A stretch of DNA of 64,000 nt from Torpedo marmorata (taxonomy: Eukaryota): assembly GCA_977017645.1 (NCBI GenBank), contig OZ360227.1, forward strand, positions 126,790,001 through 126,854,000, in the 5' to 3' direction. Every line of letters begins with the position of its first letter. Position 1 is the stretch's first letter. Position numbers and translations under genes: made by a program. A model generated the notes under the pieces. The model made no database searches. It was not told the DNA's origin and saw only the letters and a program-made list of their open reading frames with translations. Positions 3,754 through 64,000 of the stretch are shown one piece after another.

Positions 3754-3789
<36 letters not shown>

Positions 3790-5303: not shown

Positions 5304-5356
5304 TCACAGCAGGCGAACAAGGGTGGCTCCTACCCAATGGTGCCTGTTCAGATTTC
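5304..5356 (-). CDS. Candidate terminal coding exon of an unidentified host gene: (G)NLNRHHWVGATLVRLL*
   Basis: Minus-strand acceptor tctctgatctactttgcattactcag|GA, phase 1, with a ctgat branch-like motif and TGA at 5306-5304. It lies in locally GC/CpG-richer non-repeat sequence. Gene not recognised. Confidence 0.4.
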
Positions 5357-19000: not shown

Positions 19001-20237
19001 TGTTTCGTTCTACCAATTAATTTTTCTATTTTTCGAGTTTGTAATATATTATAATGCAATTTCTTCCTAATTAAACGTTGTCTCCTAAAAATTGTTTTAT
19101 TTCTTTGAAAATCTTTCTCCATAAATTCAATCTCCCTTTCCAATTTTCCTTCTTCTTTCAAATAATCTTTTCTAATTTTTGCCGAAAAACTTATTATCAA
19201 ACCTCTTAAATAAGCTTTTAAAGATTCACAAATTATAAATTTATCATTAACCGAATTTTTATTTATTCTTAAAAATTCCTGAATTTCTTTTCTTATATAT
19301 TCACAAAAATCTTTCCTATTTAATAAAGAAGAATCAAATCTCCAATTATATACAGTTTTTTCTTTCTCTGGAATTATACACGTCATCAATAAAGGTGAAT
19401 GATCTGAAATTATTCTTGCTTTGTAAGATATTTGAGTTACTCTATCCTGAATTTGTGAAGATATCAAAAATAAATCAATCCTAGAAAATGAATTATGTCT
19501 AAAAGAATAAAATGAATAATCTTTTTCTCTAGGGTTTAATTTCCTCCAAATATCTACCAGATTCAAATCTTCCATTAAATTAATAATTCTTTTAACTATT
19601 TTAGGTCTAGCAAGTGTTCTAGTAGTTCTATCCATGTTCGCATTTAAACAACAATTAAAATCTCCACCAATTAAAATATTTTCCTTAGCCTCAGATAAAT
19701 GTAAAAAAGCATCTTGAATAAACTGTTCGTCATCCGGATTTATAACATATAAATTTAAAAATAAATTTGACAATGTATTAAAACATATCTACCAGCTACA
19801 TCAGTCACTACTGATTGTATTTTAAATGGTAATTTTTTATTAACTAAAATCGCTACACCTCTCGCTTTAGAATTAAAAGATGAAGCTACTACATGTCCCA
19901 CCCAATCTCTTTTTAACTTTTGATGTTCCTTATCAATCAAATGTGTTTCTTGTAAAAAAGCTATATCTACTTTCAATTTCTTAATATATGCCAAAGTTTT
20001 TTTTCTCTTAATTGGATTATTAAGCCCATTAACATTAATACTTACAAAATTTATACTTCTAGAATACACCATAAATAAACTTTAGTCGTTCTCTATCTGT
20101 CTGATCTGCTAGCGTTTCCCTCCTAATCTGTTGACCACATATTTTCTCCTCAAATAGAATAGAAAACCAAAAAAGTAAGAAAAAATACCCCATAAACAAC
20201 ACCGGATTGTCTATCCCAGTGTCAACCCCCTCCGTCG
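16018..20237 (-). mobile_element. AT-rich L1 copy with the whole ORF2 region (disrupted), truncated in the inter-ORF spacer
   Basis: 15-bp TSD accaaaggcactttt (16003-16017, 20238-20252). ORF2 pieces: 19755-20072, 18892-19773, 18101-18748, 16304-18085. Confidence 0.95.
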
Positions 20238-39630: not shown

Positions 39631-40643
39631 TATTACGAGGCATTTCATTTTAGTGTGACTGTCACATTAAGAGTTATCAAATTGAGAGCTAGTATAAGCT
39701 GCGACCATTCCCAACTATGGAGGGAACTGAGTTGGCAACAATCAGGGACAGACTGTGCCCAAGGTTTATCCTCTGGAGGAAGCGAAGGAACATTTGTTGC
39801 TTTTGTCCAGGCACAGGTGTGGAGAGACATGTGAGTGAAACATTTAAAGGAATAACACACTAGGTGATCAGGGGCCATTTTAAAGAAACAGCACTTTGGG
39901 CAGCAGCCATCTGAAGGGACTGTGCTGGAGTGGCTCTGTTTGGTAATGGTCAATTTGTTTGTTTCTCCTTGTCAGGAGAAGTTTTGATCCCCACCGTGAC
40001 CAAAGGAAGGATCATTTTTGAAGGGGAATTAGTGTACCACACCGTGACCAAAAGAAAGGTAATTTTGAAGGGGAATTATTAAATCCCACCGTGACCAAAG
40101 GAAAGGTCACTTTACTGACCTGTATTCGGGTATTGGAAGCAGGAGAAATACTGCATTTGGATTGTGACCATTGTGATGGTCATTTTGGACTGACCCGCAT
40201 CTGGGTTCTGGAAGTATTGTGAAAGTCACTCGTTTCGGTTCCTCTATGAAAGGAAAAGGGGAATTGTGACCACCAGTCGTCTGAAAGGACATTCGCTCTG
40301 GAAGTAACTCGTCAAGGTTTTGTGAGTTTTCTGCAGTCTGTCACTCGGTCTCTCCCACCTCATTCGTAATCACTTCTTTGCATCAGTTTAAGAGTCTTCG
40401 AGTCAACACTGGATTTCTAAGACTGACTTTGGAATAACTTTCCAGAATTGTGCCTAAGCTGTAATGGTTTTAGGTATCACACACACACGTATAAGTATAT
40501 TCACGCATAGTGGGGGTTAAGTTTTGATAAGTTTAGATAAGTTAGATAAGGTGTTATATTATTAGTAATTAATAATAAAAATATTATTTTAAAAATAACA
40601 CTGTCTTTGTGAATTTCTATTGCTGCTGGTCTGTGACGTAACA
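39631..40643 (+). mobile_element. 5' LTR of a Gypsy-type retrotransposon
   Basis: tattacg...cgtaaca imperfect terminal inverted ends, homology to the solo LTR at 3036-3923, and a downstream PBS. Confidence 0.82.
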
Positions 40644-40647
40644 TAAT

Positions 40648-40665
40648 TGGGGGCTCGCCTGGGAT
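40648..40665 (+). promoter_or_regulatory. tRNA-Pro primer binding site
   Basis: tgggggctcgcctgggat versus canonical TGGGGGCTCGTCCGGGAT (2 mismatches), 4 nt after the LTR end. A likely gag ATG follows at ~40797. Confidence 0.85.
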
Positions 40666-40866
40666 AGCACGAAAATTGGAGCTTATTGATCGATTAATTT
40701 TTGATTTGATTGATTAAAGAAATAAAAAGGAATTTAATCAATTTCACTTCTTTTTGAAGGCCAATTAAAAGGCTTGTGTGTGGAAAAACAGCAGCAATGG
40801 ATATTGGAGTTTTTATTTCTTTCTTTTTCAATCTTTTTTATTGATTTTTATAAGAAATACAATACA

Positions 40867-41694
40867 CTTTATTCCATATTTCTAACAAGTGCTTTAAAAT
40901 AGGAGAGTTTTTACCTCCTCTTAATAGTAATTTAGAATTCCATTTATAAATAACTTCTTCTTTCAAATCCTCTCCTATATTATTTAATTCTATTCTAATC
41001 CAAGGAGAAGATTTTCCTAAATCAAACATTTCATTAATAAATTTTAGTTGAGCTGCTTTATAATAATTTTGAAAATTGGGAAGTTGTAAACCTCCCATTT
41101 CGTACTCCCAAGTTAATTTCTCCATACCCACTCTAGCCAACTTTCCTTTCCACAAAAATTTCCTAATAATTAAATTTAAATTTTTAAAGAATTTTTGAGG
41201 AATTTCATAAGGAGATTTTTGCGAATTGCTTTAGCTGTTTCAAAGAAATGCATTGCTATTACATGGAAGTCTGATGTAGATTTAGGGTTAGAGAGATGGC
41301 ATGCAGAACTTCATTCAGCTATACCACTTGAAAAAATTACTTATAATTTACGTAACAAATATCATTTCTTTTTGAAAATATGGAGCCCATATATAAAAAC
41401 TGTCGGTTAAAGGATTTGAAGTTCTCTGGATATCAGATCTGACTGGCGAACCTGTGTTCCACAATAAAATTAGCTTATAGTTGTTCTTTTTAAATTGACA
41501 TTCTCCTTACTTTATCTTTTTCTTTCTTTCTTTCTTTCTTCTTTTTTTTTTATTAGAATAGTAAGGGTGGGAGGGTTAGGGAGGGGAGGGAGGGGGAGTG
41601 AAAATATATCACATCTATTTTGATAATTTTGCATTTTATAATATGTATTATCGAGTGATTTAAAATTTTTAATAAATTTTTTTTAAATAAAAAA
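40867..41694 (+). mobile_element. AT-rich L1 with 5' inversion (twin-priming structure) in the L1-D 3'UTR
   Basis: 15-bp TSD aagaaatacaataca (40852-40866, 41695-41709). 40867-41213 is antisense ORF2; 41214-41694 is the sense C-terminus, 3'UTR and A-tail. Confidence 0.9.
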
Positions 41695-44600
41695 AAGAAA
41701 TACAATACAATGAAAGAAAGGGAACGAAATTGAAAATACAATATCACATATGTATATATATTAAAATAAAACTTCAAACAGTATAAATTTGATCCCCCTC
41801 CACTGCAATAGGTGACAATGAAATAAACCATCAAAAGTATTATATATATAAAAAAACATCTAACCTACTCTAATAAAAAAAACCAACTAACAAAAAAAAT
41901 CTGAGCAGCTTATCCTGAAGGTTATATATATTTTGTAATTTTTGGTTCCTACCGTAAATCAAAAAACAAAGGAAGAGTAAATACATCTAATCACATTAGA
42001 AACACTTACATCATATGAAAAAAAGACATAAAAGGTCACCATGGATCTTCAAATTTCACCGATGAATCAAATTCATGATATCTAATTTTTTCTAAGCTTA
42101 AACAAGACATAATAGAAGAAAACCATTGAAACACTGCTGGAGGTCTAGAGTCTTTCCATTTGAATAGGATGACTCTTCTAGCCAACAATGTAGAGAAGGC
42201 CACAACCCGTTGATCAGGTACAGAAAAACTCGCTATGTCTGGGTCAATAACCCCGAAAAGAGCAGCTATTGGATTGGGTTGTAGCTCCACCTGGAGTATA
42301 GTTCAAAAGATATTAAAAATTTATTTCCAATAGTTTTCTAAGGATGAACAAGACCAAAACATATGTGTCAATGTAGCAATTTGAGACTTGCATCTGTCAC
42401 AAATAGGGTTAATATTAGAAAAAATACTAGCCAATTTATCTTTGGACATGTGAACACGATGCACCACTTTGAATTGGATTAATGAATGTTGGGCACATAT
42501 AGAAGATGTATTTACCAATTTAAAAATCTTGTCCCATAGATCCTCAGATAAGGGTTTTGCAAGTTACAGTTCACAAGCCTTTTTAATCTTATCATGAAGT
42601 ACTGGATGTAATTTTAATAATGTATCATATATAATTCCAATTAATCCTTTCTGAGAAGGATTCAATTGAAAAATATTATCAACTAAATCTGGTGGATATA
42701 TAAATGGAAAATCCCGTAATATGATATTTAAGAAATTTCTAATCTGTAAATATCTAAAAATATTAGTATTTGGTAAGTTATATTTGGCAAGCTGTTCAAA
42801 AGACATTAAACAACCTTCCTTAAATAAATTTGCAAAAGAAACAATACCTTTGATTTTCCATATAGAGAAAAATTGATCAATTATTGATGGTCAAAAAAAA
42901 TAGTTATGAGAGATAGCACTAGATAAGACAAAGTTTTTTAAATTAAAAAATGTTCTAAATTGGAACCAGATTCGTAATGTATGTTTGAGTATTGGATTAT
43001 ATATATTCCTATTGATTTTGGAAAAGCTAAATGGAAGAGAGGCACCCAATAAAGAGGCCACTGAATACTGCTGCATAGATTTCAATTCTAAATCTGTCCA
43101 TAATGGATGATCCAATTTATCAGAATAAAAAAATCCAAAATGTTAGATAGCGAATATTAGCAGCCCAATAACAAAATCTAAAATTAGGTAAGGCCATACT
43201 TCCATCTTTTTTCAATTTTTGAAAATGTAATTTACTAATTCTAGGGTTTTTGTTCTTCCAAATAAAGGAAGAAACTTTTGAGTCAATATTATTAAAAAAA
43301 GATTTTGGAATGAAAACTGGAATTGCTTGAAATAAATATAAAAACTTAGGTAATATTATCATTTTAACTGCATTAATATGACCTATTAAAGATAACGATA
43401 AAGGAAACCATTTAGAAAAAGACAATCTCACATACTCGAATAGAGGAGAAAAATTGAGTTTATATAAATCTTTAAATATTTTAGTAATTTTAACCCCCAA
43501 GTATGTGAAATTATCTCTAGCAATCTTAAATGGAACTTGAGTATAGATAGGAACCTGCATATTAATCGGAAAAAGTTCACTTTTATGAAGGTTTAATTTA
43601 TATCCAGAGAAAGAGCTGAATTGAGAAAACACAGATAACATAACTGGGAAAGATCTTTTGGGATCTGAAATATAAACTAATAAGTCATCTGCATACAAAG
43701 AAACCTTATGAGTTACCCAGTCTCTGACAATCCCTTGAACCTCATGAGAGTCTCTAAGGGCTATTGCCAGAGGTTCTAAAGCTAGATCAAATAGCAAGGG
43801 GCTAAGGGGACATCCCTGTCTAGTTCCCCTAAACAACCTAAATGAGGAGGATTTGTTAATATTAGTAACTACCATAGCTAAGGGGGTACTATAGATCAAT
43901 TTAATCCACGATATAAAACCCATACCAAAATTCAATCTCCTTAATGATTCGAATAAATAGTTCCACTCCACTCTGTCAAAAGCCTTTTCTGCATCTAGAG
44001 AAACTATACATTCTGAAATTGTGTCCAAAGGGGAATAAATAATGTTCATTAATCTACGGATGTTGAAATGTGAATATCGATTTTTAATAAATCCAATCTG
44101 ATCTTTAGATATAACAGAAGGAAGAATATATTCCAACCTGCTGGCTAGAATCTTAGAAAGAACCTTAAATTCTACATTCAACAAAGAAATTGGCCTATAG
44201 GAAGTACATTCAGTCAGATCTTTATCTTTTTTAGGAATCAGTGAAATTGATGCTTCATAAAAAGTTGCCGGTAGGGTCCCAGAGAAAACGGAATTTTAAA
44301 ATACTTTACATAGTTGAGGAATAAGTAAGTTAGTAAATGATTTTAAAAATTCCACCGTAAAGCCATCCAGACCTGGGGTCTTGCCAGATTGAAGAGAAGA
44401 TATAGCTTGGGAAACTTACGACTCTGAAATTGGAGCTTCCAACAAGTTTTGATCTTCAGATGATATTTTAGGAATATTCAACCATTGTAAAAATGTATCC
44501 ATTAAAATAGAATTATCAGGAAATTCAGATTTGTATCGATCTGAAAAAATTCCTGAAACACTTTATTAATTTCAGCATGATCAAAAGTTAAGTTTCCATA

Positions 44601-46223
44601 CTTCTTACGTATCTTTATGATTTGTCTTTTAGCTGCAGCTGCCTTCAGCTGACCAGCCAACAGCTTTCCTGATTTCTCTCCATGTACATAAAATTGAGAT
44701 TTAAGTTTAAGTAGATGATTCTCGATGGGGTAAGTTAATAATAAGTCATGCTGAGTTTGAAATTCTACTTTTTCCTTATAAAGGTCCATACTAGGTGTCA
44801 TAGAATATAATCTGTCAATCTCTTTAATTCTATTAGAAAGTAATATCAGTTCACTTTTGGTACGTTTTCTAAATCCAACAGAATAAGAAATTATTTGTCC
44901 TCATAGAAATGCTTTAAATGCATCCCAAATTACCAGATTAGACATTCCTTCCGTGGAATTTGTCTGAAAAAAGAAAGAAATCTGATCTTTAATAAAGCTA
45001 ATAAATTTCTCACCCTGAAGCAGAGTAGAATTGAACCGCCATTGTTGAACTCTGGAAGTGACACCGGAGATTTCAACAGAAAGCTTTAAAGGTGCATGAT
45101 CATAAACCACGATTGCATCGTAGTCACATTTCCCTATCGAAGGCACCAATCGTGTATCAATAAAAAAATAATCTATTCTAGAGTAATTATGGTATACATG
45201 AGAAAAGAAAGAAAATTCCTTTTCCTTCAGGTGTAAAAATCTTCATATATCGACTAAACCATAGTCCAGCAGGAAAGAGTTAATATAACTAGCTGATTTA
45301 TTTGGAAGTATCTGAATGGCGGAGGACCTGTCAATCAGAGTATTTAAGCAACAGTTAAAATCTCCACCCATAATCAGCCCGTATTCATTCAAATTAGGTA
45401 GGGAATTGAAAACCTTTTGAAAAAATTCAGGACAATTGATATTAGGAGCATATTTATTAACCATTACTACCTTCTTATTTCCCAATGAACCTGTAAATAT
45501 TAAAAATCTTCCTGCTACATCAGATATTGTATTAAAATGTACAAATGGAATCTTGGAATCAATAAAAATCGAGACGCCTCTAACTTTAGCTTGAGAAAGG
45601 GAATGGAATTGTAAACCCTTCCAAAATTTAAAAAAACTATATTTGTCCTTCTTGCGAATGTGCATCTCCTGCGCAAAAACAATATCGGCCTGAAACCTTT
45701 TAATCATATTAAATACCTTTTGCGTTTAATAGGGTGATTGAGGCCATTCAAATTCCAAGAAATAAAATTAAATGTATTTATAGCCATATTAATATTAAGA
45801 TTAATAAAATTAAAAAGGAAAGCTTGTTGCGCATGTACAAGCACATTCCCAAGAGGGCGATAGAGCACAGCATGAACCATAACGAAGATACAAATGATAA
45901 ATTCCAAAACCATTCAAAGCTGCTCAGGGAAAAAAAAAGCTTATACTAACTAACCCCACCCCCACCCCCAAAGCCCGAAAACTACCCAATAAGAGGGCAG
46001 CAAGCTGAAGCTACTCATCCCTTAACCCCGATCTCCAACTGGGAGCGCTCCAAACAAGAATTACAAAGTTATGTTCATTCCCAAACTGAGTTCTGCGTCG
46101 CAAGCCATCAAGCGCCAAGATTAACTGTCCAGAAATTACACGGTTGAAAAAAAATGATCGCCATTTTACAAACCCAGTACAGTATCAACCGTTAATTAAT
46201 TAATAAGAAAGATAACCAAAGGT

Positions 46224-46634
46224 TGGAAAAAATTTGTTGTTCTAATCTTGATAAGAATCTCAACTTTCAGAGGATATGGGGTTCATTTATGAGCCTCTTT
46301 CCGACATTGTAATTATGGGCTTTATAACATTCTCTCTTTCTTTTTTCTTTATCTTAGCCAGTTTCAGATGCGCATGGATTAGGGTTTAGATTTCCTCCCC
46401 TTTTTTGTTAGTTAGTTGTAGTTTAGATTCTTTTTTTTCTTTTCCTTTGCTTTTATGTTTTGGGGGTATGTCAGTTTTATGTGGCCATTCCTTGATTGCT
46501 CTTTCCTTGTATTATTACTTCTGAAAGGGGACTTAATGACATTTGTAATTATAATTTTCTTTACTTTTGCACTGACTGCCTCGGTATTGTTTGAGCTTAT
46601 TTGTTTTAAAAATCAATAAATAAAATTGAAAAGA
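46224..46634 (+). mobile_element. Short L1 3' end inserted in the L1-D inter-ORF spacer
   Basis: 19-bp TSD aagaaagataaccaaaggt (46205-46223, 46635-46653); EKI...FQRIWGSFM*; aataaa tail. Confidence 0.88.
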
Positions 46635-47192
46635 AAGAAAGATAACCAAAGGTAACAACCTGTAAAGTTAAACTATATATATTAAAAAAGGGGAGAAAAC
46701 CCCTATTACTTTTTATTTAAGCAAAAAATATATAAAGAGAGAAAACAGAAAGAAAGGAGTGAATCCAAAATATCTTCAGCCATAACATCTCTTATCCAGG
46801 AAACAGCTCATGTAGATTGCTACAGATCTTCCAGATACTTCCAAGCTTGATCTGGAGTAGTAAACCATTTGGGGGGACCATTCTTGGGGAAAATCTTCAA
46901 ACGAGCAGGAAAACGAAGAAAAGGGCGAAGTTGTTTTTGATAGACCTCAGACATGACTTCTTTAAATTTCATTCTCTCTGCCAGGACTTCAGGGCAGTAA
47001 TCTTCCACAATACGAATAGAGATATCACGAAATTTCAGCATACCTTGCCTACGAGCCTCTCTGATTATAGCTTCCTTTGATTGAAAATAATGAAAGCAGG
47101 GAATAACAGGTCGAGGTTTAACTTCGGGTGGAGGTTTTGACCTCAGAGCACGATGTGCCCGATCCAAAATTGGAGGTTTACTCAGCACTCCT

Positions 47193-47516
47193 TGTAAAGG
47201 TTAAAACTAGTGTTTTGACTCTTAGTTAATTATATGCCTGTCTCTTTAAGGCAACTATTGTTTGTAGTGTTACTATAGTGATTATGATGTAATATGTCGT
47301 AATATCCACCCAGGCTAGAGCCTTTGCATTCATTCGACGAGATGTGAAGAATGTGTGAGCACGAGAAATATTTTCTTTGAGCCATTTTGTAGCATCTCTT
47401 TAAATGTTTTTGTATCTCTTAAATACCGTAAATGCTTTATTATTCAACTATATGGAAGTTTTATTGCAAAACTATGTAAAAATGTTTATACGCTTAATCA
47501 ACAAATTAAAACGACA
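47193..47516 (+). mobile_element. Putative 5' LTR of the BEL/Pao element
   Basis: Starts TGTAAAGG exactly where L1-D ORF1 breaks and ends attaaaacgACA. The partner LTR is not in the window. Confidence 0.6.
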
Positions 47517-47813
47517 AAAGTAGATACCAAGAAAATGATTTATTGGATTAAAGGGATGATAATTCGGAATATTGTAGCTCACGCATTGGAAGATGATACT
47601 TTGAAATTAGTAGACAAGATGAGACAAGTGTCGTCTATATTTTGATTCAAAGAAAATATCAATTGTGATTTTGTTCAGAAAGAAAGTTTGTAAAATCTGT
47701 CTAAATGAATTGCGCAGTTTGAAATTATGCCAAAGACTGGCCAGACAGCCAGTGTCCTTGAAAAAGTTAAGCCAGAGCTTTGGTAGCAGAATTGGCAGGA
47801 AGCCCAGAAGATG

Positions 47814-48414
47814 TTTTTTTTTTATTATTTTATTTAAAATTTTTAAATCACACAATACACAGTTTAAAATGCAAATTTCTCAAATTACATGTGATACATT
47901 TTCACCCCCCCTCCCTCGCTCCCCTCCCTAACCCTCCCGAAAAGAAAGAAAGAAGAAGAAAAGGATAGAGTAAGGAGAATGTCAATCTAAAAAGAACAAC
48001 TATAAACTGATCTTATTGTGGAGGATAGGCTCGCCAGCCAGAACCGATGTCCAGAGATCTTCAAATCCTTAAACCCACAATTTTTATATATGGGCTCCAT
48101 ACTTCCAAAAAGAAATGATACTTATCACGTAAATTATATGTAATTTTTTCGAGTGGTATGCATGAACGCAATTCTGCGTGCCATCTTTCCAACCCTAAGT
48201 CTACATCCGACTTCCATGTAGTGGCAATACATTTCTTAGAAACGGCTAAAGCAATCCGTAAAAATTCTGTCTGGTACATATTTAATTTCCCTTTAACACT
48301 GGTTCCTTCAATATCTCCAAACAAAAATATCATAGGATCCATTGGAAGTGTAGTTCCTAATAATTTATCCAAAAATTTTTTAACTTTCAACCAAAAATCA
48401 TAAACTTTTGGACA
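47814..48414 (-). mobile_element. AT-rich L1 3' fragment in the BEL leader
   Basis: Poly-T, C-rich tract and CPKV..FW...EKITYNLRDKY. Possible short tgttttt TSD. Confidence 0.9.
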
Positions 48415-49199
48415 CTTTTGTTTTTGTAAACAATAGATAAGAAAGCTTGTTTGCAAAACTACAGAAAAGCCAAAACTTAGAAGCAGAAATCAGGAGAAGC
48501 CAGAAGCCAGGTTGCAGTGTGAAGAACCCAAGATGGATAAGAAGAAGCCACTGGATAAGGACCTCGAGCAAACAGATCCTCTCAAAAAACTGTTTGATCG
48601 TGAGCCAAGCCAGCAAGGCGGACCGATAACACTTAATAGGAGGTTGGAGCAAGTACACAAGGAGGAAACGGCTTCAACTAGCAAGTAAGAAGACGATGTC
48701 AAGACACTGCCAACGTTGGTAACAGGCTTAAAGATAAGTGGAACTGGAACTGAAAAATTTATGTTACAAAATCCCATTGGTGCTGCACCAAGCGAAATGC
48801 AGAGGATAGAGACTCAATCAGCGGTATCTGAAAGTTCAGACGTGAATCCTGATGATAGTATTTCCAAGGTTATAAGCGCAGCCAGATCTTCAAAGTCTTC
48901 AAAGACATCTAGAGCCACAAGTTCAGCTTCACGTGCTTCAAGCATATCAGCTATGCATGCTAAGGCGCAAGCAGAATTGGCAACTGTCTGTGAATGACAA
49001 CAGTGGTTGGAGAAAAAATACGATATAGAGGACAGGCAAGCTGAAATCAAGAATCAGCAAGCTGAAATCAAGAATCAGCAACTAAGTCAGCAACTGAAGT
49101 TACAATTGGCTAGTGAAAACAAATGAGATTATTGAAAAGCGAAGAGAAAAGATTAAAGCTAGAGGAACAAAAAGCTATGAACCAGGCTAAAGTGAAAGC

Positions 49200-49375
49200 C
49201 AGTAAAACACGAAAATCTGTAGACGCCGTGGTTGCAGTAAAAAACACAAATGCTGGAGAAACTCAGCAGGTCAAACTGTGTCTTTTATGTAGCAAAGGTA
49301 GAAATACATAACCGACGTTTCAGGCTTGAGCCCTTCATCAAAGAATGAGAAAATGCCGGCAGGCGTCCGAACAAA
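49200..49375. mobile_element. Penelope terminal-repeat insertion in BEL gag
   Basis: 11-bp TSD aaagtgaaagc (49189-49199, 49376-49386), aaatgctggagaaactcagcagg, and a hammerhead-like core on the minus strand at 49314-49343. Confidence 0.85.
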
Positions 49376-49671
49376 AAAGTGAAAGCATTAGCTCAGCCTT
49401 CTGCAAGATGTGTCACTCAAAGTGATATACTCAAAGGGCAAGCACCTTTCATTTCAGCAGAGCCACAAGAAAAAAAAATACTTGGGCAAGGAGCTACAGG
49501 TGTCGCTACAAGTGCTCAAATGATAATGGCCAATCCTATGGAAAGAACTAGCAACATTCAATCTCTCCAGAGCGCACAATATATGGATCTTCCCGAAAGG
49601 AGGGTATTTCAAAAGGATATAACCATGTGAGTTGATCATACTCAACCATGTATGTCTCGTTATGTTGCTTG

Positions 49672-49910
49672 AGAATCAATTGCAACCCAAGGATTCCCAC
49701 CAATGCAATTAATTGCAACCCAAGGATTCCCAACAATGCAATCAATTACAACCCAAGGATTCCCACCAATGCAATCAATTGCAACCCAAGGATTCCCACC
49801 AATGCAATCAATTACAACCCAAGGATTCCCACCAATGCCATCAGTCGCAACCCAAGGATTCCCACCAATGCCATCAGTCGCAACCCAAGGATTCCCATCA
49901 ATTCCATCAC
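49672..49910 (+). repeat. 33-bp coding minisatellite (~7 units, QSIATQGFPPM)
   Basis: Unit caatgcaatcaattgcaacccaaggattcccac, in frame with gag. Confidence 0.95.
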
Positions 49911-52900: not shown

Positions 52901-53054
52901 AAGAGAAAAAAGAATATATAGAAATGTTAGTTAAAAGGAAAGAAATAGAATGAGAAATAAAGTTAAGAGAGTTAGTATGAGGAGAAAACTATTTCAGACT
53001 AACTCTATTTGTATATGGAGGTTACTTTTGTCAGCGGTACTAACTTTTAGAGAA

Positions 53055-56000
53055 TTAATTCATACCCATAATTCTCATATATGGGCTCCAAATTTTCAAA
53101 AAGAAATGATATTTGTCTCGTAAATTATACGTAATTTTTTCCAGTGGTATACAAGAACGTAACTCTGCATGTAATCTATCTAAATTCAAATCTAAATCTG
53201 ATTTCCAAGTAATAGCAATACATTTTTTTGAAATAGCTAACACAATTCGTAAAAATTCTATTTGGTACATATTTAATCTATTTCTAATACTAATTTTTTT
53301 TATATCTCCAAATAAAAATATCATAGGATCCATTGGAATCATAATATTAAAAATTCTATCTAAAAAATCTTTGACTTTAGACCAAAAATTTTTAATTTTC
53401 AAACATGACCATGTACAATGTACAAAAGAACCTATTTCATCTTTACATCTAAAACACATATCTGACAATGCTGGATTGAATTTCTTTAATTTTTTAGGTG
53501 TTATATATAATTGATGAAAAAAGTTATACTGTACTAATCTATATCTAACATTAATAATCTTAGTCATACTCAATTTACACAATTCTTTCCAGTGTTGTTC
53601 ATCTATATTAGTATTTAGATCTGATTCCAAATTTAATCTAGATTTATGCAATCCTACTTTAGGTATCTTTTTCTGAAATAATTTATACATTTGCGATATA
53701 AATTTATTGACATTTCCATTAGTAATTAATAACTCTAACCCATCCTGTCTAGGAGATATTAATTGATTCCCTAATTTCTCAACTAAAAATCCTTTAACTT
53801 GATAATAAGCCAAAATTGTATTATCCATTATTCCAAATTTTTCTTTCAATCTAGAAAAAGTAACAAATCTTCCTGCCTCAAAACAATCTTTAATCTTCTT
53901 AATTCCTTTTTGATACCATAATTTTAAAAATTGATTATCCATAGAAAATGGTAATAATAAATTCTGATATAATGGCATATTTAAAGAAATTGATCCTTTT
54001 CGCCCTATTTCATTATCTAATTGATTCCAAATCTCTAATAAATGTCTAATAATCGGTGACTTTTTCTTTTTAATCAATAATAATTTAGAATTCCATTTAT
54101 AAATAATATCTTCCTTATTTCTTTCTCCTATATTACTTAATTCTATATTAATCCAAGCCGTGTTTTTAGTTAAATCAAATAATTCATTTATAAATTTTAA
54201 TTGTGCTGCCTTATAATAATATTGAAAATTAGGAAGTTGTAATCCACCCATTTCATATTCCCAAGTTAATTTATCCATACTTACTCTTGCCAGTTTTCCT
54301 TTCCATAAAAACTTTCTAATAATACTTTTTAAATCTTTAAAAAATTTTTGAGGAATACCAAAAGGTATAGATTGAAAAAGATATTGAACTCTTGGAAAAA
54401 TATTCATTTTAATACAGTTCACTCTTCCTATTAAAGTTATAGGTAAATCTTTCCAATTATCCAAATCCTTCTTTATTTTCTGAAATAAAGGTATGTAATT
54501 TAATTTATATAAATTTTCTAACTTTGTATCCACTTTAACTCCCAAATATTTAATAGCTTCTTTAGCCCATTTAAATTTTGTAACTTCTTTACATTTAGTA
54601 TAGTCTCCTTGAGATAAAACCATTATCTCACTTTTATCCGAATTTATTTTATATCCAGATATTTCACCATAATCCCTCAATATTTTATCTAATTGTTGAA
54701 GTGATTCAATAGACTTTGTCATATATATTAATACATCATCTGCAAACAAACTAATTTTATGCTCTTCTGCACCTACTTTTATCCCTTTTATATTCATATC
54801 TTTCCTAATCATTTCCGCCAACGGTTCTATTGCCAATACAAATAAAGCAGGTGACAATGGACATCCTTGTCTTGTTGACCGTGTCAAAGAAAATTTAGAT
54901 GATATTTGACCATTTGTAATTACTTTAGCTGTAGGTTCCTTATATATAGTTTTAATCCAATTTATAAACGTATTTCCAAATCCATATTTCTCTAAAACCT
55001 TAAATAAAAACTTCCACTCTAACCTATCAAATGCTTTTTCTGCATCTAATGCTATCACTAACGGTAAATCCTGTTTCTTCTTTTGTAAATTAATCAAACT
55101 TATTAATCTTGCTATATTATCCTTTGAATATCTATTTTTAATACATCCTGCTTGATCTGGATGTATTAAAAATGGTAAAAACTTAGCTAGTCTATTTGTC
55201 AAGATTTTCGCCATTAATTTATAATCTACATTTAACAATGATATAGGTCTATACGATTCAGTTTTCAATACATCTCTATCCTTCTTTGGTATAACTGTAA
55301 TAACAGCATTTAAAAAAGTTTTCGGTAATAACTGAGTTTCCTTTATTTGAGTCAATACTTCCATATATATAGGTATCAATAAATCTTTAAACTTCTTATA
55401 AAACTCTACAGGAAATCCATCATCACCAGGAGATTTACCACTATTCAATGATGATAAAGCTTCACCTACTTCTCTCATTGTAATTGGTAGATCTAACAAA
55501 TCTCTATTAGAACTATTTAATTTGGGCAACATAATTTTAGATAAAAAATCGTCAATTTTTACAACATCTTGACTCATTTGTGAAGTATATAAATTTTGAT
55601 AATATTCTTTAAAAGAATTGTTTATTTCTTGAGGTTTATAAGTTATATCTCCATTACTTTTCTTTATAGCATTTATAGTTTTAGAAACTTGTTCTTTCTT
55701 TAATTGCCATGCTAAAACTTTATGTGCTCTTTCTCCCAATTCATAATATCTTTGCTTTGTTCTACCAATTAATTTTTCCATTTTTCGAGTTTGTAATATA
55801 TTATAATGTAATTTTTTCCCCATTAAACGTTGTCTCTTAAGAATTGTTTTGTTTCTTTGAAAATCTTTTTCCATAACTTCAATCTCCCCCTCCAATTTTT
55901 CTTCTTCCTTCAAATAATCTTTTCTAATTTTTGCCGAGAAGCTTATTATCAATCCTTTTAAATATGCTTTTAAAGATTCCCAAATTATAAACTTATCATC

Positions 56001-56840
56001 AACTGAATTATTATTAATTCTTAAAAATTCCTGAATTTCTTTTCTCATATAATCACAAAAATCTTTTCTATTTAATAAAGAAGAATCTAATCTCCAATTA
56101 TATACAGTTTTTTCTTTCTCTGGAATTATACATGTCATTAATAACGGTGAATGGTCTGAAATTATTCTTGCTTTATAAGAAATTTGAGTTATTCTATCCT
56201 GAATTTGTGACGATATTAAAAATAAATCAATCCTCGAGAATGAGTTATGTCGAAAAGAATAAAATGAATAATCTTTTTCTCTAGGGTTTACCTTTCTCCA
56301 AATATCTACTAAATTTAAATCATCCATTAAATTAATAATTCTTTTAACTATTTTAGGTCTAACAGATGTTTTAGATGTTTTATCCATATTCGTATTAAGA
56401 CAACAATTAAAATCTCCCCCAATTAAAATATTTTCCTTAGCTTCAGATAAATGTAAACAGATATCTTGAATAAATTGTTCATCCTCTAGGTTTACAATAT
56501 ATAAATTTTAAAAAGTCCATGTTTCTGAATAAATTTGACAATGCACCATAACAAATCTACCAGCTATATCCGTCATTACTGATTGTATTTTAAATGGTAA
56601 TTTTTTATTGATTAAAATTGCTACTCCTCTCGCTTTAGAATTAAAAGACGAAGCTACTACATGTCCTACCCATTCTCTCTTCAACTTTTGATGTTCTTTA
56701 TCAGTCAAATGTGTTTCCTGTAAAAAAGCTATATCTACTTTCAATTTTTTAATATATGCCAAAGTTTTTTTCCTTTTAATTGGATTATTAAGCCCATTAA
56801 CATTAATACTTACAAAATTAATACTTCTAGGATCAACCAT
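53055..56840 (-). pseudogene. L1 ORF2p (APE endonuclease-RT-CCHC), ~1261 codons with one in-frame TAA at 56510-56508
   Basis: ORFs 56508-56840 and 53055-56387 are in the same frame. Motifs: NVNGL, LQETH, GGDFN, SDH, YRPISLLN, FADD, CFRC..H...C. Confidence 0.93.
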
Positions 56841-57108
56841 AATTAAATTTTAAACATTCTCTATCTGTCAGATCCGCCGACGCATCCCTCCTATTCCGTT
56901 GATTACATATTTTCTCCTCAAATAGAGTGAAATAATAGAAAAGCAAGAAAAAAGAACATCCCATAATTAACACTGGACTGTATATATCCCAGTGCTACCC
57001 CCCTCCGTCGCTCGAGAAGCGGTACAACCGCTAAAGTGGTGGTGGTTTCGGAAAAAGTCCCAATGAGTCCACCTCCCCCAAACAGATAATTAATCATACA
57101 TTTAATAT

Positions 57109-58479
57109 TCAATTAACTCCTCTCAAATTTTCACTTTCTTCTTCAATCTGAACCAAGGCAGCTTCTTCGGTTATCAAACCTGGCATTTCATTCTCTCTTC
57201 TTACTTGACTTTCTTGCGCTTGTTGAATAGTACCCACAGTATAAACTCTTCTCAGATTCGGAAGATTAGTTGCATGTAACAAGGCTTGTCGAGGATCCAT
57301 AAATAATAGAGAACCATCACCATTTTGAATTCTCAGAGTCGCCGGATATTTAAACGAAAATTTGTAGCCTTTCTCCCATAACTTTGCCTTAGCAGGATTA
57401 AACTCTTTACGTTGTTTGACCAGCATAGGACTCAAATCAGGATAGAAGAGAATTCTGTTCTCTTGAATTTGCATCGGAGCACCATGATCTCGTGTATATT
57501 GAATTGCTGATCTTATAATTCTTTCTCTGTCTTGATATCTTAAACACTTTATCAAAATTGGACGTGGTCTCCGATCTATCTGATCTCTCCTTCCAATCCT
57601 ATGAGCACGTTCAAGCTCTATTGGTTGGTCAAATCCAAAAGTCTGCTTCAACCAGTCTTGAAAAAACTTGGTCGTATCTAAAGGTTCAAAATTTTCAGGT
57701 ATTCCCAATATTTTCACATTATTTCTGCGACTTTGATTTTCCATCTGTTCTATTTTCAGCATCATTTCATCTCTTTGCTTTTGCCATCCAGTAAAAGTAT
57801 CTTCCATCTTATCCACTCTATCTCTACAATATTCAACTTCATGCTTATTATTTTCAGTTTCCTCTTCCATTCTTTTAACTCTCTCATCCACTTTACTTAC
57901 AGCACTCTCCAATCTTCCCATATTCTGTTTTACTTCTGTAAATTCATCTTGTATTTTACTTATAGTCATATTAAGCTTAGCATCCATTTTCCTTTCCAAT
58001 TTTGCTATAGCCTGTAAAATATTATCTTGAATTGAACATAACTTTCTCTGCATATCACCTTCATATACATCAAAATCTTCAGTATCTTCTTCTCCCAGCT
58101 GGCTATCTTCTTTCTCCCCTTCAGATTCCGACGATAATGCAGGCTTCCCAGCCTGTAGTATGGTCTGGGAAGCCTCCGCTGACGTCATGCTGGCCTCGTA
58201 TAGTTGCATTTGTAAATCGGCGATTCTGCGCATGCGCGCTTGTTCTTCCAATCTTTTTGTAGTTTTAGATCGGGCGCCGGCGCCATCTTCCGCAGCTCCC
58301 TGCGGAGGTGGCGTCGGCGCTCCCGATTCAGACAAGCGTTTGCCAGGTCGCTTACCAGGCTTCAACTGCAGGACAGTCCCAGGCTCCATCTCCAAGGTAG
58401 GCCTTTTCTCTTCATGTAATAAAGTTGTTTGTACCATGGTTTTTTTAGCTTTTTGTTCTTTCGTTTTTCTGCCAGCCAT
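57109..58479 (-). CDS. L1 ORF1p, intact, 456 aa
   Basis: Coiled coil, ENQSRRNNVKILGIPE, LERAHR, RPILIK, FYPDLS, YPATL. Confidence 0.93.
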   Translation of the reverse strand: MAGRKTKEQKAKKTMVQTTLLHEEKRPTLEMEPGTVLQLKPGKRPGKRLSESGAPTPPPQGAAEDGAGARSKTTKRLEEQARMRRIADLQMQLYEASMTSAEASQTILQAGKPALSSESEGEKEDSQLGEEDTEDFDVYEGDMQRKLCSIQDNILQAIAKLERKMDAKLNMTISKIQDEFTEVKQNMGRLESAVSKVDERVKRMEEETENNKHEVEYCRDRVDKMEDTFTGWQKQRDEMMLKIEQMENQSRRNNVKILGIPENFEPLDTTKFFQDWLKQTFGFDQPIELERAHRIGRRDQIDRRPRPILIKCLRYQDRERIIRSAIQYTRDHGAPMQIQENRILFYPDLSPMLVKQRKEFNPAKAKLWEKGYKFSFKYPATLRIQNGDGSLLFMDPRQALLHATNLPNLRRVYTVGTIQQAQESQVRRENEMPGLITEEAALVQIEEESENLRGVN

Positions 58480-58480
58480 T

Positions 58481-58610
58481 CTTAAAGTAGTTATAGCACT
58501 TTTTGTGATGTTCTTGATTTTTTTGAGTTATTTAAAAAGTCTTCTTAGTTTTATCTGCTGGGAGAGGTGTATCTCTGCGTCTTCTTCCTACGCCATCACG
58601 ACACGCCCCC
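58481..58610 (-). promoter_or_regulatory. L1 5'UTR / putative internal Pol II promoter
   Basis: GGGGGCGTGTCGTGATGGCG start with a YY1-like ATGGCG near +14. CpG-rich sequence continues into ORF1. Confidence 0.55.
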
Positions 58611-58971
58611 AGTCAGAGGGAATCTTGAAGAAATGTGTCCATTTGTAACCACTTTAGCAGATGGTTCTTTATATATAGTTTTAATCCAGTTAATAAATGT
58701 AATTCCAAAACCAAATTTCTCCAATACCTTAAATAAAAAATTCCACTCTAATCTATCAAAAGCCTTTTCAGCATCTAACATTAATACTAATGCTAAATCA
58801 TCCTTCTTTTTATGCACATTAATTAAACTAATTAATCTAGCTATATTATCCTTTGAATATCTATTTTTAATAAAACCAGCTTGATCTACATGGATTAAAT
58901 CTGGTAGATAATTAGCCACTCTATTTGCTAAAATTTTTGAGATAGCACATCCTGATGCCTTCCCGATCATT

Positions 58972-61026
58972 GTGGGAGACTTCAATCAGGTCAATCTGAA
59001 GAAGTCACTGACAAACTACCATCAACACATCACATGTGAGACCAGGGGAACCAACACACTCGCCCACTGCAACACCACCGTGAAGAACGCATACCGAGCC
59101 ATACCACGACCGCACTTCGGCAAGTCTGATCACCTGGCTGTACTTCTACTCCCGGCGTACAAGCAGAGACTGAAGACCACAGCACCAGTGGTGAGGACGG
59201 CGAAAGTATGGTCGAGGGGGGCAGAGGAGCGTCTGCAGGACTGCTTTGAATTGGTGGACTGGAACATATTCAAGCACTCAGCCATAGACCTAAATGAATA
59301 TGCAACAGGTGTCACCGACTTCATCAAGACCTGCGTGGATGAGTGTGTGCCCACGCGCAAATACCGGGTGTTCCCCAACCAGAAGTCCTGGATGAATCAG
59401 AGAATTCGCAACCTGCTGAGGACAAGAACAAGGGCGCTTAAGGCCGGGGACCGGGATCTTTACAAGAAGTGCAGGAACGACCTGCGGAAGGCCATCTCTG
59501 AAGCAAAGTGGCAATTCCAGAGGAAGCTGGAGACAGAGACAGATACACGCCAGCTATGGCAGGGAGTGCAGGCCATTACAGCCTACAAAGCGAGGGCGAA
59601 CACTATAGACGGCTGTGATGCTTCACTACCTGATGAGCTGAACACCTTCTATGCCCGCTTTGAGAAGAAGAACAAAACAGTGCCTACTAGAATCCCTGAA
59701 AAGGCTGAGGACCCTGTGATAACTGTCTCTGAGGGCGACGTCAGAACATCATTCAAGAAGGTGAACCCTCGCAAGGCGTCAGGCCCTGATGGCGTACCTG
59801 GCAGGGTACTGAAAATCTGCGCCAACCAACTAGCCGGAGTGTTCACGGACATTTTCAACCTCTCATTGCGGCAGTCAGACGTTCCCACCTGCTTCAAAAG
59901 GGCATCAATCATCCCAGTACCCAAGAAGAGTAGTGTGAGCTGCCTCAACGACTTCTGCCCAGTAGCACTAACTTCTACTCTGATGAAATGCTTTGAGAGG
60001 CTGGTCATGTCCAGAATTAACACATACCGAAGCAAAGATCTGGACCCACTGCAATTCGCCTATAGTCACAATCGCTCCACAGCAGATGCAATATCGCTGA
60101 CTCTCCACTCAGCTCTGGATCACCTCAAAAACAGCAATTCATACATACAGCTGCTCTTCATCGACTACACCTCGGCCTTCAATACCATTATTCCCTCAGT
60201 GCTGGTCAAGAAGCTACAAACTCTAGGCTTCTGTACCCCCCTCTGCAACTGGATCCTTGACTTTCTCATCGGAAGACCACAGTCAGTACGAATTGGAAAC
60301 AACGTCTCCTCCTCACTGATTATCAACACAGGCGCACCCCAAGGATGCGTGCTTAGTCCACTGCTCTACTCGTTATACACCCATGACTGTGTGGCCAGGC
60401 ACAATTCCAATGCCATCTACAAGTTTACCGATGACACCAAAGTTGTCGGCAGAATCACAAACGGCAATGAGGAAGCGTACAGGAGGGAGATAGATCAGCT
60501 CATTGAATGGTGTAATGGCAACAACCTTGAGCTCAACGTCAGCAAAACCAAGGAGATGATTGTGGACTTTAGGAGGAAGTCAGGGGCACACGACCCAGTC
60601 CTCATCGAGGGCTCCGTAGTGGAGAGGGTCAAGAACTTCAAATTCCTGGGTGTCAACATCTCCGAGGATCTGTCCTGGAGCATCCACGTTGATGCAATCA
60701 CAAAGAAGGCTCATCAGCGGCTATACTTTGTGAGGTGTCTGCGGAGATTCGGTATGTCACCGAAGACTCTCGTAAACTTCTACAGGTGTACCGTGGAGAG
60801 CATTCTGGCTGGTTGCATCACTGCCTGGTATGGAGGTGCCAACTCCCAGGACAAGAGTAAACTCCAGAGGGTTGTTAACTCGGCCTGTGACATCACAGGC
60901 ACCAAACTTCACTCCATCGAGGACATCTACATGAGGCGGTGTCTTAAAAAAGCAGCCTCTATCCTCAAAGACCCCCACCACCCAGGCCATGCCCTCTTCA
61001 CTCCGCTTCCATCGGGAAAAATGTAG
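58972..61026 (+). pseudogene. Rex/Babar EN C-terminal half and RT (684 aa open, premature TAG near the end)
   Basis: [41 protein letters not shown]. Confidence 0.9.
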
Positions 61027-61263
61027 AGGAGCCTAAAGACGAGCACTCAACGGCACAAGGACAGCTTCTTCCCCACTGCCATCAGATTCCTGAATAATCA
61101 ATGAACCAAAGACACTGCCTTACTTTTCGTGCACTATTGTTTATAATTTTTTATAGTAATGTCGTAAGATGGTTAATATGAATGTTAATTGCACTATGAT
61201 GCTGCCGCAAAACACCGAATTTCATGACTTGTTCATGACAATAAATTTTGATTCTGATTCTGA

Positions 61264-64000
61264 ATAAAATCAGAAGACACAAAAGCTTTACAAGCATATG
61301 CACTCTTTCTGAGAGGATGTTGTAACGCAATGGGAAGTAGTATACATTTGCAAGAGTTGAATTTGCTTGCCAATTTTTCTATTATAATAAATAAATTGCC
61401 GTATAAGCTGAAGGATTTATGGAGAACCAAAGCTACAGAGTTTAAGATGTGTGAAGGAAGGGACGCCACTTTTGAAGATGTTGTACAATTTTTGGAATGG
61501 CATGTGCAAGTTAACACAATACCAATATTCGGAAATATTAAGGATACTTCAACAGTTCCTAAAGATGTAAAGAAGTCTAAATCATTGTTTCAACAGAAGC
61601 CAAAGGGAGCATCACTTTGTCACTACTGTGTTAGATTCAAGCACAGGAGAGAACAAAGAAACAAAGGATATGGAAGATCAGTCTGTTCAGAAAAGCTGTT
61701 TGTATTGCAAAGATATGCATGCTTTAGAAAAATGTTCACGATTGGAGAAAAAGTCGCATGACGAGAAATTAACTTTTTTAAAGAAGAATGGAGTATGTTT
61801 TGGCTGCTTGTGTAAAGGACACATCAGCAAAACTTGTAATAAGCGACTCAGTTGTGATATATGCAATTTAAAGCATCCCAAGTTACTGCATACTCAACGA
61901 ATTAAAGTTGAGAAGGAAGTCAAACAATCTGAATCTAAGACTAATGAGACAACTAAAGAGTACGCTTCAGCTTCGGTTCAGACAAAAAGTCTTACTGGGG
62001 CCGGTGACAAAGCCCTCTCAATAGTTCCTGTACAAGTTAAAGCTAAAAAAGGTAACTTCATACTGAAGACCTATGCATTTCTTGATCCAGGAGGTACTGC
62101 ATCATTTTGTACTATTGAGTTAATGAACAAACTTAATCTTAATGGAAAAAGATCATAGATCTTATTGAAGACAATGAATGATGAAAGAAACATTGAAACT
62201 AATATAGTTTCAGGTTTAGAGATTGCTGGATTAAATAGCAATGAATATTGCGATCTTCCAAGTGTATATACTCAGAAGATTATGCCTGTGAATAAGGAGA
62301 ATATTCCATATCAGGATGATATGCTTACCTAAGATTGATGCCAAGATCGAGATGTTAATTGGATTAGATGTACCAAAGGCTCTCGAACCTCTAGAAGTAA
62401 TAAGGAGTCAAAACGACGGACCATATGCTGTGAGAACATTGCTTGGATGGACAATTAACGGCCCATTAGGAGGAAAAATGAATAATGATCAGAAGATGTT
62501 GAACGTAAAAGTCAACAGAATTTCAGCTGTGAAACTTAATGATCTGTGGGAACAACAGTTTAAAATTGATTTTCCTGAATGTCTCACAGATATTCAAAAA
62601 CCTTCAAAGGAAGACAAGCGGTTTCTGGATTTAGTTTCAAATTCTGTTAAACATATTGATGGTCATTACTGTATAGCATTACCTTTGAAGAAAAGAGAAA
62701 TTTGTATGCCATATAATAAAATAATTGCAGAACAGCGTATGCTGAATTTAAAGAGAAAATTCAAGAGGAATTCTTCCTTTCATTTGGAATATGCAGATGT
62801 CATGTTAGACATGATAGCCAAGAGTTATGTAAAAAAGGTATCAGAAGATATCTTGGAAAGTAAAGATGGTAAAAAATGGTATTTACCTCATCATGGAGTT
62901 GTACATCCACAAAAGAAAAAACTACGTATAGTATTTGATTGTGGAGCATCATTTCAAGGAGTTTCATTGAATTCTCAACTTCTACAAGGTCCAGAATTAA
63001 CCAGTACTTTAATAGGTGTTCTGATAAGATTTTGTAAAGAACCTATTGTAATTGCTGCAGATATTGAAGCGATGTTTCATCAAGTAAAAGTACCATCAGA
63101 AGATCATGATTTATTACGATTGTTGTGGTGGCCTAATGGAGATTATAATGAAGACATGATTGAATACAGAATGACAGTTCATCTATTTGGAGCAACATCA
63201 TCACCGAGTTGTGCAAATTTTGCTCTCAGGAAATGTGCTGAAGATAATGAAGAACAATTTAGTTCTCAAGCCATAGGCATCATCAAAAATAATTTCTATG
63301 TTGATGATTGTCTTACTTCAGTGGTTTCAGAAAAAGAAGCAATAGATCTTTATCAAGAGTTAAAGGAGATCTGTAATAAAGGAGGTTTCATCCTTACGGA
63401 ATGGATTAGCAACAGTCGAGATGTGTTGGCTGTCATTCCTGAAACAGAAAGAGCAAAGGAGATAAAACATCTTGATTTGGATTGTGACATTCTACCCGTC
63501 GAAAGAATGTTAGGGGTACAATGGTGTGTTCAATCTGATGTTTTCAAATTCAAAATTGTTTTGAAAGAACGACCTTTAACAAGAAGAGGTATTCTTTCGA
63601 TCGTAATTTCAATATATGATCCTTTAGGAATATTGGCACCAGTAGTATTAATAGCCAAGAAAATTCTGCAAGAATTGTGCAGAAGAAAATTTGGATGGGA
63701 TGAAGCTATACCAGAATCCATCGCACAAGATTGGATAAATTGGATTGAGAGTCTTAAATGTTAGAAAATTTTGAAGTCAACAGATGTTTGAAACCAAAAG
63801 ACTTTGGAATTGCTAGCCATGCTCAGTTACACCACTTTGCTGTTGCAAGCGAAGGTGGTTTTGGTACTGTCAGTTATTTAGTACTACGAAATAACCAAGA
63901 GAGAGTACATTGTGGATTGGTAATGAGAAAAGCCAGAGTGGCTCCATTAAAGCCAGTCACCATACCTCGTATGGAATTGACTGCCGCTACTATGGTGAGC
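61264..64000 (+). pseudogene. BEL gag C-terminus, protease, RT and start of RNase H (several frameshifts/stops)
   Basis: ORFs 61330-61761, 61628-62158 and 62316-63764 carry the BEL motifs. Confidence 0.9.

Follow-up and report, generated by a model that had tools for sequence, protein, structure and literature searches.

A six-level nest of Gypsy, L1, BEL and Rex retroelements in the genome of Torpedo marmorata

Nested transposons in other genomes and in Torpedo

For the transposon clusters of the human genome, Giordano et al. 2007 counted 636,125 interruptions genome-wide and described a five-level chain that mixes element classes, L2 > L1MB3 > Tigger1 > L1PA8 > AluY, within 11 kb (PMC1914374). 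Plant LTR retrotransposons, as at maize adh1, form multi-level "Russian doll" nests for which dedicated tools such as TE-greedy-nester exist (PMC7755421). Levy et al. described young elements lying inside older ones at levels above those in non-TE DNA (PMC2836564), and flamenco-like unistrand piRNA clusters are rich in recently active elements, Gypsy included (PMC10643416).

We analyzed a window of 64,000 nucleotides from T. marmorata (contig OZ360227.1, positions 126,790,001 to 126,854,000, forward strand), in which six retroelements are nested one inside the other in the order Gypsy (Gmr1-like) > L1-D > BEL > Rex > truncated L1 > full-length L1, with six side insertions besides. The nest spans about 32 kb, and its right end lies 7.5 kb past the window; positions above 64000 refer to the same contig continued rightwards (L001, whose coordinates plus 63000 give window coordinates). 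As in the human clusters, older elements are split by newer ones, which gives relative ages, but the Torpedo stack is one level deeper than the human chain, includes two LTR superfamilies and a Rex element, and formed entirely within about 2% divergence. It shares multi-level nesting with the plant nests; however, the plant tools handle LTR-in-LTR insertions, whereas LINEs occupy four of the six levels here, in an animal genome. In comparison with the bias described by Levy et al., no common hotspot was seen, since L1-B copies sit at differing positions of their L1 hosts. The density of recently active elements, Gypsy among them, recalls flamenco-like clusters, from which the stack differs in having no orientation bias and in being dominated by LINEs.

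Among the papers listed in literature searches, none was seen to describe this locus or a nest of six levels in a cartilaginous fish. Nested stacks are already known, and no new mechanism is revealed by this one. The locus is instead a clean and well-dated example for teaching and benchmarking, which orders six retroelement families of the genome without a clock. It could serve to test how annotation tools that allow for nesting cope with stacks in which LTR elements and LINEs are mixed, and it shows the heavy pile-up of young repeats in the Torpedo genome. Its importance would be greater only if small RNAs revealed a capture locus.

Architecture of the stack

The outermost level is the Gypsy element, as the sequence-only reading of the window had proposed from an LTR and a PBS. 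The 5′ LTR occupies 39631..40640 on the plus strand and is followed by a PBS at about 40644, and its partner, the 3′ LTR, is found to the right of the window, at L001:7126-8492 (70126-71492). The two LTRs are sisters (support 95/87 among 26 LTR rows) and a polypurine tract is present, while the TSD is imperfect and does not match the family's 4-bp norm cleanly. The leader and first gag bases (40641..40814, plus strand) are continuous in copies L003 and L005, and their last bases form the left L1-D TSD copy (40800-40814); gag picks up again at L001:6099, and pol lacks about 2.97 kb at L001:6991/6993. Gmr1-like Gypsy elements carry the integrase upstream of RT (PMC8220671). The sister copy L003 has this order (rve at 3305-4120, RVT_1 at 4643-5320, RT_RNaseH after it), and the integrase/RT region is deleted in the window's own copy. 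We considered whether this deletion was inherited by the family and rejected the idea: among the best 40 of 2783 candidates, none of the 39 other matches listed spans it, and from these alignments the deletion looks private to the window's copy. The 3.2 kb of Gypsy is stretched over 31.9 kb, a tenfold expansion compared with 1.4-2-fold in other copies. The 3′ LTR is itself interrupted at L001:7345-7702 by an inverted-repeat element of 358 bp, flanked by an 8-bp TSD, which we take to be hAT-like.

L1-D (40815..47192, minus strand) comprises a poly-A end, ORF2 and the C-terminal part of ORF1; it is 92-98% identical to the uninterrupted copy L007 and gave an RVT_1 match in Pfam (E 6e-40). Its insertion just past the Gypsy gag start was corroborated by a 17-bp TSD that starts immediately after the gag ATG, the left copy being short by 2 bases, and its 5′ end was found past the window at L001:5915-6097 (68915-69097), followed by the right TSD copy. 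Two side insertions interrupt the element: a 5′-inverted L1 fragment at 40868..41709 (40868-41213 minus, 41215-41700 plus) with a 15-bp exact TSD, and a poly-A-ended LINE 3′ end of about 420 bp at 46224..46653 (plus strand) with a 19-bp exact TSD, whose family was met at only one other locus among the loci compared.

The BEL 5′ LTR (47193..47779, plus strand) begins cleanly at 47193 in L1-D ORF1, where the insertion had been placed from the window alone; an apparent 6-bp overlap with L1-D was dismissed as alignment overrun. Behind it come the leader and the first, DUF1759-bearing part of gag (47780..50358, plus strand), in which a 33-bp coding unit is repeated in tandem at 49641-49956. Gag-pol, with RT and Peptidase_A17, continues at 61263..64000 (plus strand) and runs on to L001:1351. 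A 3.1-kb L1 then interrupts BEL at L001:1352-4518 (plus strand; 19-bp TSD with 1 mismatch), and integrase and DUF5641 extend to L001:5918 (integrase 67500-68918). Pfam thus gave the order DUF1759 gag, RT, Peptidase_A17, integrase and DUF5641, with rve under the curated cut-off at E 3e-5. BEL stops at L001:5918, about 65 bp short of the place of the 3′ LTR and with 4-bp microhomology with L1-D, and the window's copy has no right junction, 3′ LTR or TSD. The 3′ LTR is present in the sister copy L024; we read its loss here as a later deletion of about 1 kb, and the window's copy as a broken member of the BEL family. Two side insertions lie in the left part of BEL: an L1 3′ end in the leader (47819..48425, minus strand; about 7-bp TSD) and a short high-copy element at 49200..49375 (about 11-bp TSD; listed without a strand). 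The minus strand of the latter bears a motif resembling the hammerhead type of Penelope-like elements, a reading to which Rfam, searched over 39000-64000 at E 0.1, lent no support (0 matches). The chain itself holds four superfamilies, L1 occurring three times, and the five retroelement classes claimed earlier are reached only if this Penelope-like piece is counted.

Rex consists of a 5′-truncated endonuclease part (50359..50711, plus strand), which gave no Pfam match, and of an RT, a PF09004 stretch, which we presume to be linked to Rex, and a GATTCT-repeat tail (58940..61262, plus strand). It has no TSD and sits in BEL gag between KILSWS and IKSED, with 2 target bases lost. The insertion was verified by the eight of ten BEL copies that could be matched at this site, all of which pass uninterrupted. 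None of 15 further Rex copies whose two ends could both be seen has an exact repeat above 9 bp; 4 of the 19 Rex loci in this survey were without a 5′ end. Rex1/Babar elements are described as having an endonuclease before the RT, no ORF1 and a short-repeat tail (PMC6274825, PMC13343379); in the present copy RT, PF09004 and the tail are seen, and the ORF1 region falls outside view because the copy is 5′-truncated.

The truncated L1 (L1-A) has its 3′ part at 50712..52755 and its 5′ part at 58611..58939, both on the minus strand. Its TSD (50698 / 58940) had been given as 16 bp; a TSD exists, but it measures 14 bp if 1 mismatch is allowed and 10 bp as an exact repeat, and 16 bp needs 2 mismatches. 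Within it lies the innermost element, L1-B (52756..58610, minus strand; 5854 bp), at a site that the other L1-A copies L067, L069 and L071 read through. Its perfect 16-bp TSD (52740 / 58611) stands as first read; the copy called full-length has an open ORF1 and one stop in ORF2. TSDs of 14-17 bp are carried by 16/19 L1-B copies. The hallmarks of the L1 clade are present (ORF1, endonuclease-RT ORF2, poly-A tail and a TSD of about 15 bp), and L1 ORF1 gave no Pfam match at E 0.001.

Every host is colinear on either side of its insertion, L1-D around BEL with a gap of about 395 bp that is missing from its ORF1, and in other genomic copies all hosts run uninterrupted across the respective sites. 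This continuity, the junctions and the sister Gypsy LTRs confirm the six levels. The four side insertions that had been recognized from the window are likewise confirmed at the places given. The idea that the stack is readable from TSDs held for levels 2, 5 and 6, where they are clear, and failed for Rex, which has none, for BEL, whose TSD is lost, and for Gypsy, whose TSD is imperfect. The far parts of the outer levels, predicted to lie rightwards, follow one another as had been foretold: first the BEL integrase, next the 5′ end of L1-D, and then Gypsy gag and the Gypsy 3′ LTR. The BEL 3′ LTR and most of Gypsy pol, also expected there, are deleted.

Relative age and the genome background

Copy-specific non-CpG divergence for levels 1 to 6 was 1.53, 1.55, 1.48, 1.12, 1.06 and 0.19%, measured against reference sets from which self-loci were excluded; two side insertions, with one reference each, are undated. 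The values fall inward in three tiers: about 1.5% (levels 1-3), about 1.1% (levels 4-5) and 0.19% (level 6). No age inversion was significant, and the only significant step was that from level 5 to level 6 (P 1e-4); levels 2-3 against levels 4-5 gave P 0.058, and neither levels 1-3 nor levels 4-5 can be separated among themselves. The proposal that decay roughly follows nesting fits this inward fall. At 0.19%, level 6 may be polymorphic. The relative chronology at one locus was sustained by the order of the outer halves and by divergence falling inward. LTR-LTR divergence, which had been suggested as a check, amounts to 40 differences in 999 sites for the Gypsy pair.

We consider it probable (about 0.85) that ordinary, roughly random insertion into already dispensable DNA made the stack, with no need for locus-specific attraction. 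The six families would have reached high copy numbers in waves of activity that overlapped, and each kilobase-sized insertion would have widened the target at no host cost. Levels 1-3 may have inserted close together, levels 4-5 afterwards and level 6 recently; of two later deletions, one would have removed the BEL 3′ LTR together with a piece of L1-D ORF1 and the other the greater part of Gypsy pol. The depth would then be the selected tail of a genome-wide process.

The background is rich in such events. In ten L1-D and nine BEL copies from other loci there were 19 internal insertions and 14 trailing interruptions in 67.9 kb, which compares with 7 insertions in 11.6 kb at the locus where 3.3-5.6 were expected (P 0.05-0.34). 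This density is borderline high under the lower background count (P 0.047), and P is 0.23-0.66 once the two chain-defining insertions are left out. Across 40 stretches of 10 kb, evenly spaced, repeats at ≥85% identity make up at least 40% of the sequence. In the flank survey of L1 copies, from which 2 L1-A and 2 L1-D loci were dropped because the end was not in view, 14/19 sampled L1-B copies adjoin a recognisable repeat at the 5′ end. For a 6.2-Gb genome, a uniform model expects 1.9-99 stacks of depth ≥6 at a young-repeat fraction of 0.25-0.40 and 0.1 stack at the strictest fraction (0.15), and the measured expansion of other copies leads to 1.5-400; these models are crude, in that they use a uniform rate, ignore deletion and draw on about 1 Mb of repeat library. 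The tenfold Gypsy expansion makes the stack an extreme case and weighs against random insertion, as do the value at the strictest fraction and the borderline density. Neutral models would still mostly predict such stacks somewhere in the genome, and this one is likely an uncommonly deep outcome of random pile-up where repeats abound, with no special trap.

Regional bias, capture and assembly

A region that keeps or attracts extra insertions, through low recombination, heterochromatin or an L1 preference for AT-rich L1 targets, would make the depth partly regional. The tenfold Gypsy expansion and the local insertion count point this way, as do another L1 at 11.6-21 kb of the window, apparently interrupted twice, a second Gypsy at 72.9 kb, and the biased TE-into-TE insertion of the human genome (Levy et al., PMC2836564). 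L1 also stands at the 5′ flank in 8/19 L1-B copies compared with 30/200 random positions (P 0.007), but this excess falls to 6/19 (P 0.10) under the stricter demand of both flanks plus a TSD, and an L1-into-L1 preference was set aside as weak. Outside the stack, young repeats cover 41% of the 83-kb stretch that contains it, against a mean of 31% and a 90th percentile of 66% for random stretches, and we regard a regional contribution as unlikely. The sequence-only reading had also offered an insertion sink or piRNA-cluster-like trap. That we are dealing with a dual-strand piRNA cluster of the germline or a true sink, which took up Gypsy, L1 and BEL nearly together and then each newly active family, seems quite improbable to us; such a capture locus would record the host's silencing history. 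That the stack belongs to a piRNA cluster which captures active elements and makes silencing RNAs from them strikes us as more doubtful still. Six recently active families are sampled here, insertions of active families are enriched in large Drosophila clusters (PMC10197564), and dual-strand clusters need no orientation bias (PMC10643416). However, unistrand flamenco-like clusters hold their elements mostly on one strand, and here element lengths amount to 16.1 kb plus and 14.3 kb minus; the density, ordinary to borderline, is largely accounted for by background interruption rates. The left flank is moreover single-copy DNA: its 581 bp have two weak matches elsewhere (54-63 bp) and none among the compared loci, and a seventh level outside Gypsy was rejected on this ground. 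With neutral models mostly sufficing, the trap is unsupported.

It is extremely improbable that part of the order is an assembly artefact, for which the BEL/L1-D join at 68915-68918 would be the main candidate given that the BEL 3′ LTR is missing here and present in the sister copy. The L1-D TSDs pair across 28 kb, the sister Gypsy LTRs across 31 kb, and the 4-bp microhomology at the join is of a kind frequent at deletions. At the deletion join, no bridging record was found among the matches listed for contigs of 4 runs, which are short and largely from other copies. At the left flank, X3 had no coverage, X5 covered the last bins only, and X1 and X10 were suggestive only; a contig of run X1 joins the unique flank to 29 bases of the 5′ LTR, against a bar of 31 bases.

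Left of the stack, 25 frames of ≥100 aa were compared with Pfam and no host gene was seen, although short exons would escape such a scan; the frames gave only RT, endonuclease and PF09004 matches, together with two weak coiled-coil matches on one frame.

Order and closure of the nest

In the 6.22-Gb assembly (window at C39:126790001-126854000), the Gypsy 5′ LTR at 39631-40640 pairs with a second LTR at 70126-71492, on the same contig beyond the window. Read from left to right, the interval between them holds the L1-D 3′ part, the BEL LTR and gag, Rex, a truncated L1 and a full-length L1, then the remainders of the truncated L1 and Rex, the BEL pol with its integrase, the 5′ end of L1-D and the remaining Gypsy gag. 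The six-level nest proposed by the sequence-only reading is real and closes to the right. Of the other parts predicted there, the BEL 3′ LTR is absent, and the Gypsy gag-pol is represented by its gag remainder but lacks approximately 2.97 kb of pol; the join at this gap is common to no other copy among the matches listed. The left flank is single-copy, and therefore there is no seventh level outside Gypsy. The levels had been called readable from target site duplications (TSDs); their order is secure, but it rests on host continuity more than on TSDs.

The nest is a deep and orderly new instance of a phenomenon already well known. Giordano et al. applied exactly this interruption logic genome-wide and found a mixed nest of five levels in human (PMC1914374), compared with six here; multi-level nesting in plants has dedicated tools (PMC7755421), biased insertion of transposable elements into one another is reported in human (PMC2836564), and the excerpt of PMC11117352 holds nothing on nesting.

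Junctions and family identities

The full-length L1 has the perfect 16-bp TSD claimed for it, whereas the TSD of the truncated L1, also given as 16 bp, is 14 bp with one mismatch. TSDs of 14-17 bp were found in 16 of 19 copies of L1-B, the family of the full-length element. L1-D carries a 17-bp TSD over the gag start, with the left copy short of 2 bases. Rex lacks a TSD and removed 2 target bases; of the other Rex copies, 15 could be read at both ends, and none of these shows an exact repeat longer than 9 bp. The left junction of BEL, at 47193, is clean; on the right BEL ends at 68918, approximately 65 bp before the 3′ LTR position of BEL copy L024, at a join with 4-bp microhomology where approximately 395 bp of L1-D is absent too; we infer one later deletion of approximately 1.05 kb. 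The Gypsy family TSD, read by eye, is 4 bp in all nine solo LTRs with both ends printed, and the window's Gypsy flanks match at 4/5 bases. All four side insertions noted inside the window hold up, with TSDs of 15, 19, ~7 and ~11 bp, and two beyond it have TSDs of 19 bp with one mismatch and 8 bp; the one with the 8-bp TSD is presumably a hAT. The side insertion at 49200-49375, presumably a Penelope, is a short high-copy element present in 18 of the loci retrieved; it had no Rfam match, and its minus strand carries a motif that we take to resemble a hammerhead core with one change.

Pfam matches back the labels of BEL (DUF1759, RVT_1, Peptidase_A17, DUF5641), the L1s (endonuclease, RVT_1) and Rex (RVT_1 and PF09004, which we take to be tied to Rex); the scan gave no match for either L1 ORF1 frame or the Rex endonuclease piece. 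The Gypsy family LTRs start with TA (TATTAC), not TG, in nearly all copies printed (window 39631, L026-L045, L003-L005) and end with CA; a tomato element reportedly has TA-starting LTRs (PMC3701649). The integrase precedes the RT in the sister Gypsy copy L003, which is the Gmr1 arrangement (PMC8220671). Rex1 structure and high Rex1 coverage in rays are described in excerpts of PMC6274825 and PMC13343379. Rex sequence of the same family also lies in the gag region of 2/10 other BEL copies (L018, L020), at other sites, and a 33-bp coding tandem repeat in the BEL gag (49641-49956) appears to vary in copy number among copies.

Ages of the levels

Among 26 LTR rows the two Gypsy LTRs group as sisters (support 95/87); 40 of the 999 sites compared differ between them, and their divergence outside CpG is 1.53% per branch (interval 1.03-2.18). 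Levels 2-6, dated by copy-specific non-CpG substitutions against 7-19 relatives, gave 1.55% for L1-D (52/3365), 1.48% for BEL (59/3982), 1.12% for Rex (26/2317), 1.06% for the truncated L1 (22/2074) and 0.19% for the 5′ 2.7 kb of the full-length L1 (5/2567); by this measure the Gypsy LTRs give 2.2-2.6%, jointly inherited changes included. Between one level and the next, the drop is significant only from 5 to 6 (P 1e-4), and levels 2-3 compared with 4-5 gave P 0.058. Decay follows the nesting order in three tiers, which support a relative chronology. The L1-B family is very young: 12/19 copies keep an open frame of 1264 codons. Its copies elsewhere (L170-L188) are 99.0-99.7% identical to the window's copy, and 6-8/19 lie inside older L1s (P 0.007-0.10 versus random positions).

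Two sequencing runs match the unique left flank, each with one contig below the bridge threshold: that of X1 (2.0-2.8% diverged there) extends 29 bases into the LTR, and that of X10 (5.9-6.7% diverged) stops matching at 39622 and continues with different sequence. These contigs fit, as a weak bracket, a Gypsy insertion between those two splits.

Insertion density and surroundings

The proposal that the locus is an insertion sink or piRNA-cluster-like trap is not supported. A tenfold expansion makes this stack an outlier, which tells against chance pile-up, but the window was chosen for being extreme. Ten other L1-D and nine other BEL copies, with 67.9 kb of host sequence in all, were broken by 19 internal insertions and by a further 14 trailing interruptions, some of the latter perhaps being deletions; the window's own copies of the two elements hold 7 insertions over 11.6 kb, where 3.3-5.6 would be expected (P 0.047-0.34, or 0.23-0.66 minus the two chain-defining insertions). 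Repeats cover at least 58, 40, 30 and 15% of 40 evenly spaced 10-kb stretches at 70, 85, 90 and 95% identity, lower bounds from a library of only ~1 Mb. With uniform insertion and young fractions of 0.15, 0.25-0.30 and 0.40, the expected genome-wide numbers of depth-6 elements are 0.1, 2-13 and 50-99, respectively; 3-52 elements of depth 6 arose in forward simulations that assumed 0.30 or 0.40, and the range is 1.5-400 when based on the 1.4-2-fold expansion measured in other copies. The models are crude, which also weakens the case for chance. Strand use is even (16.1 kb plus, 14.3 kb minus). In the excerpt of PMC10643416, flamenco-like clusters are, unlike this stack, strand-biased; dual-strand clusters require no orientation bias.

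A second related Gypsy lies 1.4 kb right of the stack (from 9903 of L001 to 5727 of L002, the right-hand continuation), with ~74% identity to the L003 pol and LTRs 92.6% alike, and an older LTR at 3346-3923 is a relative of the level-1 family. Another L1, on the plus strand at 11599-21341, has an ORF1-like frame from 11599 and its endonuclease at 13007; it is apparently split by two minus-strand L1s, at 13376-15456 and 16014-20237, the latter with a ~15-bp repeat at its ends. In an old Rex-like copy at 8632-9709, the 5′ part is inverted: 8632-9061 lies on the minus strand and 9075-9709 on the plus strand.
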